Source: a virus
Length of the DNA stretch: 64,000 nt
Reading direction: 5' to 3' (one strand)
UHGV virus genome: UHGV-0198106
Of this stretch, positions 50,465 through 62,816 are shown one piece after another. The translations under genes and the position numbers were made by a program. Below the pieces are notes generated by a model that was not told where the DNA came from, ran no database searches, and saw only the letters and a list, made by a program, of their open reading frames with translations. The number at the start of each line of letters is the position of its first letter. The stretch's first letter is position 1.

Positions 50465-50568
50465 AAGAGCTCTTAGCGAGGGTGACAGGACTCGAACCTG
50501 CATACTCCATTTACTTCTTTAACGACCGCTTAGAAGGCGGGGAAGATACACCCTCACTAAGAGCTCTC
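50465..50568 (-). other. structured element: 20-bp inverted repeat enclosing tRNA-like T-arm and anticodon-like hairpin
   Basis: Arms aagagctcttagcgagggtg / caccctcactaagagctctc; on the minus strand GCAGGTTCGAGTCCTGT (T-arm-like) and CCGC-CTTCTAA-GCGG (UCU anticodon-like loop); no canonical D-arm, so not called as tRNA. Confidence 0.3.
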
Positions 50569-57969: not shown

Positions 57970-58449
57970 TTATTTTGCTTTAACACAATCACCCATCTGA
58001 AAGCGGAAAGTCCAAATACTGTTATCTTCCCCACTGTAGACAGAGGTGGCTAACATGGTTTCTTGCATTGTGCCATATGTTACCAGATTAGTCACAACTT
58101 TAGAACCTTTAATAGTCTGCACATCGCCAAAAGTAATCAACTCTGGGTCATTGTCTTTACGGGAAAGCAGAATATCCTCATTATTCTGGTTGTCAAGTGT
58201 ACGAGTAGACAATACCATGCCACGATTGGTTACGTTAGATAATTTAACTTTCATCAACGTAGTGACATTATCTGAATCCAATCCTTTACAAACCAGCCAA
58301 CCTTTAGGGGCGTTGCTAACGAAGGTGTCAGCAGCATCACTCATGACTACAGCAGCTTGAGCAACTGGAGCACTAGCAATCTTGTCAGCGATAGCCATGC
58401 TACCGAAGGTTAATACCAGAGCACCGATTACAAAGTTTGCCTTATTCAT
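57970..58449 (-). CDS. secreted (periplasmic) protein
   Basis: N-terminal signal peptide MNKANFVIGALVLTFGSMAIA; 159 aa. Confidence 0.5.
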   Translation of the reverse strand: MNKANFVIGALVLTFGSMAIADKIASAPVAQAAVVMSDAADTFVSNAPKGWLVCKGLDSDNVTTLMKVKLSNVTNRGMVLSTRTLDNQNNEDILLSRKDNDPELITFGDVQTIKGSKVVTNLVTYGTMQETMLATSVYSGEDNSIWTFRFQMGDCVKAK

Positions 58450-58515
58450 GATTGATTCCTTTAGTTGGTATGCTTCGTTTCAATGAGATAAATATATTTC
58501 TTACTACCTAACATG

Positions 58516-58701
58516 TCAACAATTAATTTCAACTTTCTTACTACTAAACTGAGCACCATCAAACTTGCTTGGTTTATCAACTACTTCTAATCTTTTGTCA
58601 GTGAACAACTCAACCACTTCACTAACAATCAGAGCAAGTAAAGGAAGCACTACAGCTATTACCATCATTACTAAGATTATCATCTCTACTACTCCAACCA
58701 C
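58516..58701 (-). CDS. small single-TM protein
   Basis: 61 aa; hydrophobic stretch MIILVMMVIAVVLPLLALIV. Confidence 0.4.
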   Translation of the reverse strand: MVGVVEMIILVMMVIAVVLPLLALIVSEVVELFTDKRLEVVDKPSKFDGAQFSSKKVEINC

Positions 58702-59356
58702 TCAATCGATAGATTCAATTTACCACTACCTGATAAGGAAAGCAAGCCCACGGGTAAACTATTTCTACTATCTATATAGGACGGGGACATACAACCGCAG
58801 GACAGACCACGGGGAAAGGTAGCTAGATAGTGCGGTAGTAATATACCACTTAAATAATCATCAACTCATAAAAGAAAAAGACCAACAGAACGCTGAAAAA
58901 AGAAAGGAATAAAAGAAATTATTAAAAGAAATACAATCATCCACTTAATTAATACATACATCATTATTGCACTCATAATCATTACATTTAGAATCATTTA
59001 CATTCAAACTATGGGGGCTTGTGACTATTACTCATGGGCATTATATCGCCTCAATCTATTGGTACAGTGGAAGACTAGCCTCTCATCCACTCTTTAAAGG
59101 GGAACTAAATAAACGGGTAGGTAATGTATTGGGTAGTATACACGGGGAAAGAATAACGGGGAGTAGGCACGGGGAAAGGTTGGAACGTGGAAGGAGGTGT
59201 AAAGGCATTGCCAATAACCCTTTTTTAAATGAGGACTCCCCCTTTTTAGGAAACGCGCGGGAAGCGGCTAGCCCCACTCGGTCAAATCAGGATTTTAAAC
59301 TCTTATATATAACTATGGAGGGTTTAATTACGGGATTGGATACTGCACATGAAGTA

Positions 59357-59402
59357 GCCTTAACGTGACATGGCCTTAATGTGATAGTGCCTTAACATGA
59401 CG
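59357..59402. repeat. three tandem 14-bp iterons GCCTTAAYRTGAYR (16-bp period)
   Basis: gccttaacgtgaca (59357-59370), gccttaatgtgata (59373-59386), gccttaacatgacg (59389-59402); ~50 nt upstream of the first packaging-block ORFs. Confidence 0.6.
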
Positions 59403-59582
59403 TCCCCTTTATGTTTTAACTTTTATCAGAGGGATGTATGACTGAAGATGAATATGGTAGCTTCTCTGAAGAAGACTACGAAAAGGAATACAGGTATACT
59501 CACGGGTGTTAATGTGAGGTGGCCTTTACGGGTAGGTCTTATGATGTGCCCTTTATATTTTTTTTACTCAGAGGACAAAAGT

Positions 59583-59693
59583 ATGGGATGGTTACTGTTG
59601 GGTTTAATTCTTTTTGTCACTGTTCCTATTGTTGTTGTGTTTGGTTACATAGCCGCTGACTTATTAGGAATAAAGAAGGGAGATGAATTATGA
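59583..59693 (+). CDS. small TM protein (36 aa)
   Basis: Track ORF 59448..59693 trimmed to ATG 59583 after GAGGA; MGWLLLGLILFVTVPIVVVFGYIAADLLGIKKGDEL; stop overlaps next start. Confidence 0.35.
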   Translation: MGWLLLGLILFVTVPIVVVFGYIAADLLGIKKGDEL

Positions 59694-60046
59694 GATTGGA
59701 TTTAAGAGGTTGTACTAGGTCAGTTATATTGTTCAGAGGTTATGCTATCAAGATTCCTACTTTTAAATCTTGGAAGCTTTTCTTAAAAGGGATTCTTGCT
59801 AACCTACAAGAGAGACATTTCTCTGAGATGAAAGACCCCAACCTTTGTCCTGTAGTCTTCTCTGATAAGTTTGGTTTCTTAGTAATAATGAAGAGGTGTA
59901 AGGTGGTTAAGCACAGAGGATTGTGGATGGCAGAGCTTCACACCTTGAAAGGCTCCCTTCCTAAAGAATTTTACCTGTCAGACCTTAAGCCAGAAAATTA
60001 TGGATACCTAGGCGGACGGTTGGTTAAATTAGATTATGGAGATTGA
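59690..60046 (+). CDS. hypothetical protein
   Basis: Track ORF, 118 aa. Confidence 0.45.
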   Translation: MRLDLRGCTRSVILFRGYAIKIPTFKSWKLFLKGILANLQERHFSEMKDPNLCPVVFSDKFGFLVIMKRCKVVKHRGLWMAELHTLKGSLPKEFYLSDLKPENYGYLGGRLVKLDYGD

Positions 60047-60270
60047 TCATGAATTTAATATTAGACTTTTTATCAGAGGTGATTCCACGGTTCAGAACAG
60101 AGACTTGTGCCTTTGTTAAGATATCCCCTGAAGAATTAGAATGCATTGGTCGTCTGGTTGACTTAGATGACGATGAAGAATTTGATGCAACGATGGAAGT
60201 TAGTAGCCTAGGATGGTTATTTTTCCGAGCGTTCACCACTATCAAACCACACACTTATAAGGAATATTAA
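60043..60270 (+). CDS. hypothetical protein
   Basis: Track ORF, 75 aa, acidic. Confidence 0.4.
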   Translation: MIMNLILDFLSEVIPRFRTETCAFVKISPEELECIGRLVDLDDDEEFDATMEVSSLGWLFFRAFTTIKPHTYKEY

Positions 60271-60273
60271 TTT

Positions 60274-60675
60274 ATGTTAGATTTAATCCACACTACTCGC
60301 CCTGATTCTAAAACTAAAACACAACCATCTACTCTGGAAGTAGTTGAATACGAATCTACTAAATATGATCACCTCCCTGACTATGCTCGTGCAATGATTG
60401 AGATGATTGAAGAAGCTGAATATGAAATGCTCCATGATTACATTACCTCCAAAGATGAATGGCATCGTGATGTTCGCATCGAAGAAGATGGTACAGAAAC
60501 AATTACGTGGATTCACAAGAGTGAATTAGTAGACGACGCACTGCGAGACTACGAAAAATTTTTGGTCGACGGCTCTATTCTTTTAGAGGAAGGAAAGGGT
60601 GCAGAACTTCCGTGGGAAGGTGAGACGATTGCTCTAGGTAAGATGTTTAATCTGTCCGTTGGTGATTGTAAGTAA
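60274..60675 (+). CDS. hypothetical protein
   Basis: Track ORF, 133 aa, acidic. Confidence 0.45.
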   Translation: MLDLIHTTRPDSKTKTQPSTLEVVEYESTKYDHLPDYARAMIEMIEEAEYEMLHDYITSKDEWHRDVRIEEDGTETITWIHKSELVDDALRDYEKFLVDGSILLEEGKGAELPWEGETIALGKMFNLSVGDCK

Positions 60676-60680
60676 TGTTT

Positions 60681-60705
60681 GCCTCCGTTGGGAGGCTTTT
60701 TGTGT
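60681..60705 (+). terminator. rho-independent terminator
   Basis: GCCTCC-gttg-GGAGGC followed by TTTTTGTGTTG. Confidence 0.8.
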
Positions 60706-60731
60706 TGTTGATAATGTAGAAGGAGTATAAA

Positions 60732-61205
60732 ATGTTTGGAGAAAACGGAGAACTCACGCCTGCACAGGTAGCTGAGATTACAGGAAGATTACCCGGAGTA
60801 ACGGAAGAACTTGAAGGCCGTGGTATGAACCCAAGCAATGGGAAGTTTCAAAAGGGAAATAAATTCGGACGACCCAAAGGTAGTAGAGGTAAGCTGACAC
60901 AATTAATGTTGGACCGTGTTGCTGCAAGTCATTTGTCTCCTGATGAAGTGTTAATTCAAATTTACGAAGATCCCAATATTCCACCTGATCTTAGATTCAA
61001 GGCTGCATCAAAAGTTGCAGATCTGGTATATCCTAAGGCGGCCTCTGTTGAAGTTAAGATTGAGGAAGAGAATGTAATCAACGAAGATTCACTGAATGCA
61101 CAAATCAAGGACTTCTTGACTGGAGCACTTGGTATCGACGTTATGCCTCCAGAAGAAGACAACTCTGAGGACGCTGAAAAGGGGGAGGAAGCGGACGAGA
61201 GTTAA
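60732..61205 (+). CDS. possible terminase small subunit / DNA-binding protein
   Basis: 157 aa immediately upstream of terminase large subunit; basic segment GNKFGRPKGSRGK and acidic C-terminus; assignment by position only. Confidence 0.35.
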   Translation: MFGENGELTPAQVAEITGRLPGVTEELEGRGMNPSNGKFQKGNKFGRPKGSRGKLTQLMLDRVAASHLSPDEVLIQIYEDPNIPPDLRFKAASKVADLVYPKAASVEVKIEEENVINEDSLNAQIKDFLTGALGIDVMPPEEDNSEDAEKGEEADES

Positions 61206-61274: not shown

Positions 61275-62816
61275 ATGTCATTAGATAAACAAATTTATGA
61301 AGCTCTAACTGGTAACAACCTTAGTGTAGATGAAAAGAAAGCACTATTGAATATGTTGAAAGAGCGTGACCAATGGAGGAAGTATAATAGGATTTTGTCT
61401 TTCAAGGCGTATGACTTCCAAAAGAAATTTTATGCAGCAGGATTGAAGCATCGCTTTAGATTCTTGTGTGCAGCGAACCGTGTTGGTAAATCTTATAGCG
61501 AGGCATACGAGTTTGCTTGTCATGTCACAGGTCGCTACCCAACTTGGTGGACAGGATATAAATTTAAAAGACCTATCTTAGCATGGGCAGTTGGTATTAC
61601 AGGGGATTCCACAAGGAAAGTATTGCAAAAGGAATTGTTTGGTACACCTATCGGAAAGGATACAAATTTATTAGGGACAGGTGTCATTCCTCGTGATGCT
61701 ATCGTCATTGATACGATAGAACGAGATGGTAACAAACTTCAAATCGTACAAATCAAACATCAAAATGAGAGAGGAGAGTTTGACGGTTTAAGTACATTAG
61801 AATTCCGTTCAACCCAACAGGGTGAACACACATTGATGGGTGCAACAGTTGATTACATTTGGTTAGACGAAGAAGATCCATACGAGTCTATGGCTATATT
61901 CGCACAGTGCGTCACACGTACACTCACAACTAAAGGTCTAGTTACAATTACAGCTACACCAGAGAACGGTTTAACTGAACTGGTAGATAAATTTATGAAA
62001 GGTGAAGGAGATGAGAACACAGGTTCTCTATATTTCCAGAATGCTTCTTGGTGGGATGCTCATGCAGACCTAGGTGGACATATCACTGACCAAGATATAA
62101 AAGATATGACTGAAGGTATTCCAGCGTGGCAATTAGAGATGCGTTCAAAAGGTATGCCATTGTTAGGAAGTGGTTTGATTTACGATGTATCGGATGACAC
62201 AATTAAATGTGAACCATTCGAAATTCCTGATACGTGGAAACGTGTCTGTGCAATTGATATTGGTATTGATCACCCAACTGCTGCTGTTTGGACAGCTTAC
62301 GACGCAAACACGGATACTATCTATGTTTACGACTCATATAAAGAAGGTGGCTTTACTCCAGTGTATCATGCTCCAGCTATTAATGGTCGTGGTCAGTGGA
62401 TTCCTGTCATCCTACCGCATGATGCGGACAATATTGAGAAAGGTAGTGGTTCATCTGTTGCTCAATTCTATAAGAATGCAGGAGTTAACGTACAGAGTGA
62501 TACCTTCTACAACAAAATTGGAATGGATGGTAAAAAGAACTTCTTTGTAGAACCGGGAATCACAGATATCCGTGAAAGAATGATGAGTGGACGCTTTAAA
62601 ATCTTTAACACAGCCGCTAACGCTAAGCTATTCGAAGAGAAAGCTAGATATCACCGTAAGGTTGGTAAGATTATTAAAGAACATGATGACTTAATGGATG
62701 CAATGCGCTATTCAGCGTGCTCTGTTACACATCGTGGTCGCTCTAAGCATGATGTTAGCTACGGAAGCGCTTCTTTGTATGAGGCAAACGTAAGCAGATG
62801 GAATCAGAGCTACTAA
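61275..62816 (+). CDS. terL: terminase large subunit
   Basis: 513 aa; N-terminal ATPase region (AANRVGKSYSEAYEF), C-terminal nuclease-type region (VCAIDIGIDHPTAAVWTAYD); followed by portal gene. Confidence 0.8.
   Translation: MSLDKQIYEALTGNNLSVDEKKALLNMLKERDQWRKYNRILSFKAYDFQKKFYAAGLKHRFRFLCAANRVGKSYSEAYEFACHVTGRYPTWWTGYKFKRPILAWAVGITGDSTRKVLQKELFGTPIGKDTNLLGTGVIPRDAIVIDTIERDGNKLQIVQIKHQNERGEFDGLSTLEFRSTQQGEHTLMGATVDYIWLDEEDPYESMAIFAQCVTRTLTTKGLVTITATPENGLTELVDKFMKGEGDENTGSLYFQNASWWDAHADLGGHITDQDIKDMTEGIPAWQLEMRSKGMPLLGSGLIYDVSDDTIKCEPFEIPDTWKRVCAIDIGIDHPTAAVWTAYDANTDTIYVYDSYKEGGFTPVYHAPAINGRGQWIPVILPHDADNIEKGSGSSVAQFYKNAGVNVQSDTFYNKIGMDGKKNFFVEPGITDIRERMMSGRFKIFNTAANAKLFEEKARYHRKVGKIIKEHDDLMDAMRYSACSVTHRGRSKHDVSYGSASLYEANVSRWNQSY

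Follow-up and report, generated by a model that had tools for sequence, protein, structure and literature searches.

A repeat-rich intergenic region of a phiEco32-like phage genome is probably its concatemer junction and carries candidate packaging signals

The genome of virus UHGV-0198106, analyzed here as one stretch of 64,000 nucleotides (hereafter the window), switches from leftward to rightward genes across an intergenic region of about 750 bp (58702-59447) that is rich in short repeats. What do these repeats do? The original prediction for this locus proposed a terminase-binding site, a replication origin or an operator array, and added that the physical ends of the genome could also lie here.

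By sequence, the stretch is a phiEco32-like Kuravirus, a podophage of E. coli. With the whole window compared, it shows 94-96% identity to Kuravirus phages across 58-63 kb, and its large terminase subunit is 99.0% identical to that of phiEco32 (tblastn). According to PMC6787329 and PMC9965538, phiEco32, Paul and YF01 have a fixed, experimentally defined direct terminal repeat (DTR) of 193 bp with identical boundaries. The Paul repeat was mapped by PhageTerm (PMC6787329), and the 193-bp repeat of phiEco32 is credited to Savalia 2008 by papers that quote that work. The DTRs of phiEco32 and YF01, each found at both ends of its record, give a gap-free alignment to 59077-59269 on the plus strand (alignments A1 and A2), and the annotated DTR of Paul, with the same boundaries in its own record, aligns to the same 193 bp. 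The segment 59077-59269 is thus very likely the homologue of the phiEco32-like DTR and the terminus of this genome.

Because the DTR aligns base for base to 59077-59269, a segment present in a single copy in the window, the alignments indicate that the assembly is in concatemer-junction form, permuted and with one DTR copy collapsed, and that the physical ends fall inside the 58702-59447 region, as had been suspected. Placed by homology only, the left end of the virion DNA would begin at 59077 (AGCC…) and the right end would stop at 59269 (…GGCT); in annotating this permuted assembly, the chromosome ends are put at these two positions. We estimate a probability of roughly 85% that the region as a whole is explained as the concatemer junction, or genome-terminus region, of a phiEco32-like phage. 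The original prediction was to fall if termini and pac site mapped elsewhere and the repeats were not conserved in related phages. The termini map here by homology, and comparison with related genomes, which had been suggested as a check, finds every element conserved in 15 related phages.

The DTR lies between the last leftward early gene (58516-58701, minus strand), which encodes a small membrane-type protein of 61 aa in the ORF list (PHROG phrog_7482, E=2e-12), and the rightward left-end genes, terS and terL (ORF map, PHROG/Pfam), and the layout around it is the same in the phiEco32 and YF01 records. The likeness to the phiEco32/Kuravirus DTR thus covers the full 193-bp homology, the boundaries, the genomic position and a conserved core, whereas in those records the DTR is not reduced to one internal copy and is accompanied by gene 1, whose homologue next to the DTR is missing here. 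The core (59199-59250, plus strand, …AAAGGCATTGCCAATAACCCTTTTTTAAATGAGGACTCCCCCTTTTT…) is invariant in the conservation track of 15 relatives and matches the 'highly conserved region ~130-170' of the repeat described in PMC9965538. A scan of IMG/VR with the core returned 4 loci only, and the comparison was therefore built on the phage collection. As the original prediction stated, the region holds no convincing ORF. A protein-coding DTR was rejected since the stop-free plus-strand frame 59021-59368 is broken in most relatives, and the open minus-strand frame over the DTR is compositional, being expected from the pyrimidine-rich minus strand and varying in frame and length among relatives. As single-stranded DNA, the DTR is less structured than its shuffles (z=+2.6). 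For the genus, earlier papers already describe a 193-bp terminal repeat at this locus, and the gain up to this point is incremental. In the papers on the genus consulted here, a set without Savalia 2008 and Pavlova 2012, the three elements described below (a boundary hexamer, ACGGG modules and a CCTTWAY array) are not mentioned.

The two boundaries of the repeat share a sequence. The hexamer CT/AGCC, in which the slash marks the cut placed by homology, occupies 59075-59080 at the left boundary (cut between 59076 and 59077) and 59268-59273 at the right boundary (cut between 59269 and 59270), both on the plus strand, and the right copy sits in the palindrome GGCTAGCC (59266-59273). A boundary table of 16 phages gives GTGCT/AGCCTTTC on the left and GCGSCT/AGCCCCAC on the right, with the hexamer identical at both boundaries in nearly all of them; the Paul record, for instance, ends with ...CAGTGCT and starts with AGCCTTTC. 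The partly palindromic CT/AGCC, identical at both boundaries, is likely to be the cleavage or nicking site. We rejected CTAGCC as a rare, self-sufficient cut site, since the window holds 20 copies of it, as many as expected by chance. With a hexamer so common in the genome, the specificity of cutting must come from flanking signals.

One set of candidates for such signals is formed by ACGGG motifs. Three copies of CACGGGGAAAG(G) had been reported at 58808, 59141 and 59168, and they are found at exactly these positions, two of them within the DTR and one 270 bp left of it. All three are part of two parallel modules of co-oriented ACGGG motifs on the plus strand. Module A (58749-58821) consists of CACGGGTAAAC (58749), GACGGGGACA (58780) and CACGGGGAAAGGT (58808), with starts 31 and 28 bp apart, and includes the first CACGGGGAAAG copy. 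Module B (59112-59181) lies inside the DTR and consists of AACGGGTAGG (59112), CACGGGGAAAG (59141), AACGGGGAGT (59155) and CACGGGGAAAGGT (59168), with a start-to-start spacing of 29, 14 and 13 bp, and includes the second and third copies. Within 58750-59528, ACGGG occurs 10 times on the plus strand and 0 times on the minus strand, compared with 37 occurrences, both strands counted, in the remaining 63 kb (Poisson test of the local excess, p about 4e-13), and all five ACGGGGA heptamers of the window fall at 58781-59169.

The ACGGG motifs are conserved in all relatives, and in LAMP, Bas89, Bas92, Bas94 and ECBP2 the flanks diverge while cores and spacing persist. All three cores of module A are kept in the relatives that cover this part, LAMP and ECBP2 retaining them within different flanks. 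The module B cores are invariant in the 11-sequence alignment A2 and nearly invariant across the 15 relatives, with ACGGGA at the last two positions in LAMP. ECBP2 keeps the spacing (29/28/15) with the motif AYGGGTAGG, and this counts against a packaging role, since its small terminase subunit (TerS) is ~91% identical, yet its DTR-internal motif is not ACGGGGAAAG. If TerS reads ACGGG-type motifs, only the short core would be read. That the ACGGG modules and CT/AGCC act as packaging signals is suggested by their arrangement and conservation, and we give this slightly less than even odds.

The second set of candidates lies to the right of the DTR. A tandem array of GCCTTAAYRTGA had been predicted at 59357-59402; the array is real, while its period is 16 bp and not 14 bp (Tandem Repeats Finder: period 16, 2.8 copies, score 55). 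The units GCCTTAACGTGACATG, GCCTTAATGTGATAGT and GCCTTAACATGACGTC are followed by a degenerate fourth, CCCTTTATGTTTT, so that this first CCTTWAY cluster, defined by repeat analysis, Tandem Repeats Finder and conservation as three 16-bp units GCCTTAAYRTGAYRNN plus CCCTTTATGTTTT, spans 59357-59418 on the plus strand. Exact matches to GCCTTWAYRTGA occur in the window only at the array. A second, degenerate cluster, absent from the original prediction, follows at 59500-59561 on the same strand (GTGTTAATGTGAGGTG, GCCTTTACGGGTAGGT, CTTATGATGTG and CCCTTTATATTTT) and also holds two ACGGG motifs (59502 and 59528). Its GCCTTTACGGG and CCCTTTATA are both invariant in alignment A2; across the 15 relatives CCCTTTATA is invariant and GCCTTTACGGG nearly so. 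Inspection of the ORFs and of alignment A2 places a 24-codon acidic micro-ORF (MTEDEYGSFSEEDYEKEYRYTHGC) with a ribosome-binding site at 59438-59512 on the plus strand; it is present in some relatives and not in others, and where it is absent the two clusters are contiguous.

The array is kept in all relatives with a period of 14-16 bp. An apparent loss of the 16-bp repeats in phiEco32 and YF01 proved to be an artefact of alignment A1, caused by the missing gene 1 of the present genome, and in the wider alignment A2 the repeats are conserved in both phages. The array is co-oriented, lies on the entering (left) side and sits among the early genes of the left end. Here it lies 88 bp from the DTR; relatives with gene 1 and other insertions have a gap of about 220 to >450 bp. 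A ribosome-binding site and a gene start always follow it directly. This variable distance from the DTR and fixed place before a gene start mean that a role in gene expression fits the array at least as well as packaging. Our leading guess, drawn by analogy, is that the array may be an accessory packaging or end-recognition array, like the CCTAAAG array of T7 or cosB of lambda, with control of the early left-end transcript as the second choice. A packaging function of the CCTTWAY array is thus proposed tentatively, and we consider it somewhat doubtful.

A broader form of the second role would make all the repeat arrays transcriptional or post-transcriptional control sites of divergent early promoters that flank the junction, with the genome ends nearby by coincidence. 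The ACGGG modules would then lie upstream of a rightward promoter at ~59270-59312 and of a leftward one near 58716-58745, and the CCTTWAY units, in the 5' part of the early transcript from the left end, would work as operators or at the RNA level. An invariant segment (AGCCCCACTCGGTCAAATCAGRATTTTAAACTCTTATATATAA, 59270-59312, plus strand; conservation track) that adjoins the DTR on its right speaks for such an arrangement, as the authors of the SU10 genome marked its homologue as a 'potential sigma-70 promoter upstream of CDS1' (SU10 Table S2); a consensus scan called no promoter at 59270-59312. Consistent with control, each CCTTWAY cluster ends with CCCTTTAT, followed after 12-20 nt by the ribosome-binding site and start codon, and the array, at varying distances from the DTR, stays beside the gene start that follows it. 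A few units also carry AATGTG, one base from the AATGTA of the element tAATGTAtA recognized by gp36, the phiEco32 sigma factor, in whose published consensus AATG occupies -14 to -11.

However, AATGTG is found in only one unit per cluster and in none of YF01, and most units, in YF01 all of them, lack the AATG that gp36 needs, so gp36 promoters in the array were rejected. A scan of the arrays with the sigma-70 consensus found no promoter either. Hand inspection of the arrays for sigma-70 elements gave weak matches only, which are not conserved. The RNA of cluster 1 folds no better than shuffles (z=0.07), which counts against RNA-level sites, while that of cluster 2 folds mildly better (z=-2.25); Rfam has no match in the region. 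The two ACGGG modules point the same way, whereas the promoters would be divergent. Finally, no other transcription unit of the 64 kb carries either motif. Sites for a regulator of early promoters should recur at the remaining early promoters, and the uniqueness of the motifs therefore argues against control sites. Taken over all the repeats, we regard this explanation as unlikely, though worth keeping in mind.

Returning to the concatemer junction, we propose that the repeats probably function in terminase recognition and end processing, a proposal based on the conserved sequences and their placement. In a T7-type scheme, replication would join genomes head to tail into concatemers, a single DTR lying at each junction. 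The terminase, composed of a putative TerS (60732-61205) and TerL (61275-62816), would recognize this unique junction locus and cut both DTR boundaries, and the repeat would be duplicated by DNA synthesis. The best candidates for the specificity signals are modules A and B, with the DTR core as a further candidate. It is conceivable, though we would not bet on it, that the ACGGG modules, the palindromic CT/AGCC pair and the CCTTWAY array together form the complete cis signal for finding the junction, nicking the boundaries and regenerating the repeat. If so, the locus would be a compact, sequence-defined system for dissecting DTR formation, convergent with the CCTAAAG arrays of T7. The formation of short exact DTRs by terminases is not well understood, even in T7, and the boundary hexamer and the strand-specific modules offer concrete targets for mutation in a phage group under development for therapy.

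Both terminase genes lie on the plus strand. TerL (513 aa) is identified by Pfam Terminase_6N and Terminase_6C, PHROG 2 and tblastn, and belongs to a clade that includes LUZ24/tf-like phages. The evidence for TerS (157 aa), annotated as a putative small terminase subunit in YF01, is weak: the profile matches are to the small terminases of NV1 (7joq, E=0.0017) and, weakly, PaP3 (6w7t, E=0.12), and in a Foldseek search with an AlphaFold model (pLDDT 68) the small terminases of PaP3 and NV1 appear only at E>1, which is not significant. Binding of this putative TerS to the repeats is plausible.

To compare the junction with that of T7, whose concatemer junction is the packaging substrate, the T7 arrays were examined directly on the T7 sequence record. 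There, CCTAAAG lies at -106, -77, 17, 41, 60 and 175-332 relative to the 160-bp repeat, with none on the other strand. Both junctions combine a short DTR with co-oriented copies of a short motif within the repeat and on either side of it, a period of about 13-16 bp and related sequences at the two repeat boundaries. In contrast, they share no sequence homology, the motifs here being ACGGG and CCTTWAY instead of CCTAAAG; the terminase here is of a different, LUZ24/PaP3-like clade; and a promoter, joined in relatives by genes, lies between the repeat and the right-hand array. The T7 record annotates phiOL and phiOR, whereas this phage is without promoters for a single-subunit phage RNA polymerase because transcription relies on the host RNA polymerase, first with sigma-70 and later with gp36. 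The junction is thus an analogue of the T7-type junction and not a member of that class. The short-repeat arrays of T7 are themselves not known to have an established function.

In lambda, cosB consists of three 16-bp R sites bound by the small terminase beside the cut site. The array described here resembles it in having tandem ~16-bp elements on the side of the cut that leads toward the terminase genes, with a small terminase gene downstream. Yet the ends here are direct repeats instead of 12-nt cohesive ends, the array lies at a variable distance of 88 to several hundred bp from the boundary, and the sequence of TerS is unrelated to that of lambda Nu1. Measured against ~16-bp sites immediately beside the cut and cohesive ends, only the 16-bp period is shared.

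The nearest terminase relatives outside the C3-morphotype phages belong to short-DTR Pseudomonas phages of the LUZ24/tf/PaP3 group (TerL ~39% identity, a weak TerS profile match), in which phage tf has 186-bp DTRs and the small terminase (PDB 6W7T, 7JOQ) is a nonameric ring with nine helix-turn-helix motifs. By analogy, repeated short sites in an array could plausibly be read by a ring-shaped nonameric TerS. This group differs from the present phage in having no DNA similarity to it, PaP3 is described as a cos phage, and the TerS fold match is not significant.

Could the repeats instead be the iterons of a replication origin at the junction? The non-coding block left of the DTR (58826-59018) would be its unwinding element: it is AT-rich and highly conserved (conservation track, Tandem Repeats Finder), and two copies of CCACTTAAWTAAT (58846 and 58941), a motif found in the window only in this block, flank a 13-bp-periodic A-tract (58894-58932). 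The elements are unique, occurring once per genome, and the secondary origins of T7 adjoin its genome ends. The cumulative GC-skew minimum near 59 kb would also fit, but it coincides with the switch of the coding strand and is not independent evidence. Against this explanation, the repeats straddle or lie inside the DTR and are not beside the AT-rich block, no iteron-binding initiator was identified among the neighbouring ORFs, and phages with their own DNA polymerase and primase-helicase usually initiate replication by transcription, not iterons. The origin that had been suggested for this locus thus gains nothing specific in its favor, and we consider it improbable.

A headful pac site, at which a series-initiating cut would give permuted, terminally redundant genomes without fixed ends, might be suggested by the distant similarity (~32% identity) of TerL to P22-type headful terminases, but experiments on three close relatives gave fixed 193-bp DTRs that share their boundaries, and TerL is 99% identical to that of phiEco32, which leaves this explanation hardly any room.

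The map of the genes to the right of the junction also changes. Instead of an 81-codon ORF from 59448, the first real plus-strand ORFs are the 24-codon micro-ORF at 59438-59512 and a 36-codon membrane-type ORF at 59583-59693 (plus strand), the latter shared with O18-011 and the first of the small left-end genes (59583-60675), of which the ORFs downstream match PHROGs 4301, 12698 and 12176. The array had been described as just upstream of the terminase operon, a view that does not hold, as ~1.3 kb of small early-block genes, a terminator and a late promoter intervene. The intrinsic terminator (GCCTCC-GTTG-GGAGGC-TTTTT, 60681-60701) and the gp36-type late promoter TAATGTAGA (60712-60720), both on the plus strand, mark the true start of the packaging operon (60681-60720). 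The start of the terminase operon thus moves 1.3 kb to the right, to a late promoter of its own, and this promoter is identical to the published late promoter 'gttgataatgtagaaggagtataaaatg' of SU10.

The region and its flanks share 94-96% identity with some 100 phiEco32-group phages (Kuravirus, Gordonclarkvirinae) of Escherichia and Shigella, and the 513-aa ORF at 61275-62816 encodes a large terminase that shares 99% identity with its phiEco32 counterpart. Window position 59077 aligns with the first position of the phiEco32 record, and position 59269 with the last position of the SU10 and YF01 records. In YF01, direct terminal repeats (DTRs) are annotated at 1-193 and 78434-78626, and alignment of both ends of phiEco32 and YF01 places the 193-bp repeat gap-free at 59077-59269. 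The YF01 ends were mapped with full-length nanopore reads, and 30 group members have been recognised with similar 192-193-bp repeats (PMC9965538). The ends of phage Paul were mapped with PhageTerm (PMC6787329). Its record starts with AGCCTTTC…, the repeat closes at position 193 with …GCGGCT, and the right end, which lacks a second repeat copy, stops at …CAGTGCT, boundaries equal to those in the phiEco32/YF01 alignment. The DTR core is present in a single copy, so the window represents a concatemer junction in which assembly has collapsed one copy of the repeat. The DTR homology thus supports the original prediction that the genome ends could lie here, and by homology the physical ends of this phage would be at 59077 and 59269. 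This main feature, a terminal repeat at the locus, is already known for the genus.

A junction alignment was made of the window and 15 relatives, including the diverged LAMP, Bas89, Bas92 and Bas94 and one metagenomic contig, and the junction of ECBP2 (genus Suseptimavirus) was inspected separately. The same hexamer, CT/AGCC (slash, repeat boundary), lies at both DTR boundaries in 14-16 of the 16 phages, as GTGCT/AGCCTTTC on the left and GCGSCT/AGCCCCAC on the right (palindromes GCTAGC and GGCTAGCC). In the window it occupies 59075-59080 and 59268-59273. Since CTAGCC is not rare (20 copies in the window, the level expected by chance), it could mark a cut position but could not define the locus. 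Boundary-like sites GCT/GGCC and CCT/AGCC in ECBP2 (L025 and L024, the two loci forming its junction) are ~249 bp apart, versus 193 bp; the true repeat length in Suseptimavirus seems unsettled, and the 53-bp repeat of SU7 has been 'cautioned' (PMC9965538).

The three predicted copies of CACGGGGAAAG(G) are present exactly as claimed, at 58808, 59141 and 59168 (sequence inspected at 58300-59900), and a k-mer survey identified them as the best-matching members of a larger ACGGG family. ACGGG occurs ten times on the plus strand and never on the minus strand at 58750-59528, compared with 37 occurrences, both strands summed, in the other 63 kb (Poisson p ~4e-13), and the window's five ACGGGGA heptamers are all located at 58781-59169. 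Module A, left of the DTR, consists of ACGGGTA at 58750, ACGGGGA at 58781 and CACGGGGAAAGGT at 58808 (spacing 31 and 28 bp). Module B, inside the DTR, consists of ACGGGTA at 59113, ACGGGGA at 59142 and 59156, and CACGGGGAAAGGT at 59168 (spacing 29, 14 and 13 bp). The modules run parallel, and their cores are invariant or nearly so in the junction alignment. LAMP keeps CACGGG with different flanks; ECBP2 keeps a 29/28/15 spacing inside the repeat with the motif AYGGGTAGG, and its module A still uses ACGGGG.

The DTR core (59199-59250) is invariant, as is the segment at 59262-59312, a homologue of the SU10 'potential sigma-70 promoter upstream of CDS1'. To the left of the DTR, a strongly conserved, AT-rich, non-coding block (58826-59018) is followed by a variable segment (59019-59074). 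This block contains two copies of CCACTTAAWTAAT (58846 and 58941), unique in the window, with a 13-bp-periodic A-tract (58894-58932) between them, and could be an origin-like or packaging-related element. Within the DTR, TAATGTATT at 59122-59130 is one base from the gp36 promoter element; phiEco32, YF01 and others have TAATGAATA, and this polymorphism makes a functional promoter unlikely. As single-stranded DNA the DTR is unusually unstructured because its plus strand is purine-rich. A coding role was rejected, as most relatives have interruptions in the plus-strand frame that is open across the repeat here.

In this genus, as in T7-type phages generally, each concatemer junction is known to hold a single repeat; cutting takes place at fixed sites, and the repeat is regenerated. 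CT/AGCC may mark the two cut or nick positions, and terminase would draw its specificity from the invariant DTR core together with the ACGGG modules, which are strand-specific and occur once per genome. A small terminase that forms a ring with nine helix-turn-helix motifs, like that of PaP3, would be a plausible reader of such arrays. In the T7 sequence, which we checked, CCTAAAG flanks and enters the 160-bp repeat on one strand, mostly with a 13-bp period (-106 and -77; 17, 41 and 60; 175-332), and the repeat boundaries, TA/TCTCACAGT and CT/ATCTGTTACAGT, are also alike. The window junction thus has the same layout as that of T7, with unrelated motifs. The boundary hexamer, the two ACGGG modules and a conserved array downstream of the DTR appear undescribed in the accessible literature; they are incremental findings with a putative function.

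This array had been predicted as three 14-bp iterons at 59357-59402. The tandem repeats are there, but their period is 16 bp (Tandem Repeats Finder: period 16, 2.8 copies, score 55). The units read GCCTTAACGTGACATG, GCCTTAATGTGATAGT and GCCTTAACATGACGTC, followed by a fourth, degenerate unit, CCCTTTATGTTTT, and exact GCCTTWAYRTGA matches in the window are confined to the array. A weaker cluster 2 at 59500-59561 has a unit ending, CCCTTTATATTTT, in common with cluster 1. The array, with consensus CCTTWAY, is conserved group-wide at a period of 14-16 bp, and in relatives lacking a 24-codon micro-ORF the two clusters are contiguous, forming one array of ~7 units. The micro-ORF (59438-59512) encodes a highly acidic peptide, MTEDEYGSFSEEDYEKEYRYTHGC, and a second small ORF (59583-59693) a 36-aa membrane-type peptide, both with good ribosome-binding sites. 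Each is found in some relatives only, a pattern suggestive of cassettes being gained and lost between repeated CCCTTTAT…TCAGAGG modules.

In all 15 compared relatives the post-DTR promoter is separated from the 16-bp array by gene 1 (~200 bp; a small Cys/His-rich protein of the phi32_1 type); the window lacks this gene and has an unrelated 44-bp segment (59313-59356) in its place. An identical 18-bp palindromic insert, GTAGTCATCAAAGATGAC, absent from the window, interrupts cluster 1 in MN03 (L008, 1141-1158) and EK5 (L012, 1070-1087) and cluster 2 in O18-011 (L005, 1542-1559); it resembles a tiny hairpin that is mobile or prone to recombination.

Evidence on the role of the array is divided. 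Its uniqueness in the genome and co-oriented units favour a packaging or end-recognition element. A part in early expression of the left-end genes is favoured by its variable distance from the DTR and its constant placement just ahead of a ribosome-binding site. The predicted operator reading of the repeats is not specifically supported. Neither is the origin reading: the GC-skew minimum at ~59 kb coincides with the coding-strand switch, and no replication initiator gene was found among the neighbouring ORFs. The gp36 sigma factor recognises AATG at -14 to -11, which is missing from most array units and from all in YF01, arguing against gp36 promoters. No sigma-70 promoters were called in the arrays and no Rfam match was found in the region; in RNA folding, cluster 1 was indistinguishable from shuffles and cluster 2 only mildly better.

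The array does not lie immediately upstream of the terminase operon, as had been proposed: small ORFs (59438-60675), an intrinsic terminator (60681-60701, GCCTCC-GTTG-GGAGGC-TTTTT) and a gp36-type late promoter intervene. The latter, TAATGTAGA at 60712-60720, exactly matches the late promoter published for SU10, which is recognised by gp36, and lies 12 nt before the start codon of the putative terS, which is followed by terL. The putative TerS is annotated so in YF01, and its profile matches the small terminases of NV1 (E=0.0017) and PaP3 (E=0.12); a fold search with its AlphaFold model (pLDDT 68) returned nothing significant.

On the minus strand, a near-consensus sigma-70 promoter (58491-58519, TTGACA-17-TATATT, 11/12) points leftward from between the ORFs of 61 and 159 aa on that strand; it is probably an early promoter of the right-end block. 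Rfam called a minus-strand tRNA at 50477-50555 (30.2 bits against a gathering score of 29), and ARAGORN called none in the entire window; YF01 is among the relatives reported with a single tRNA.
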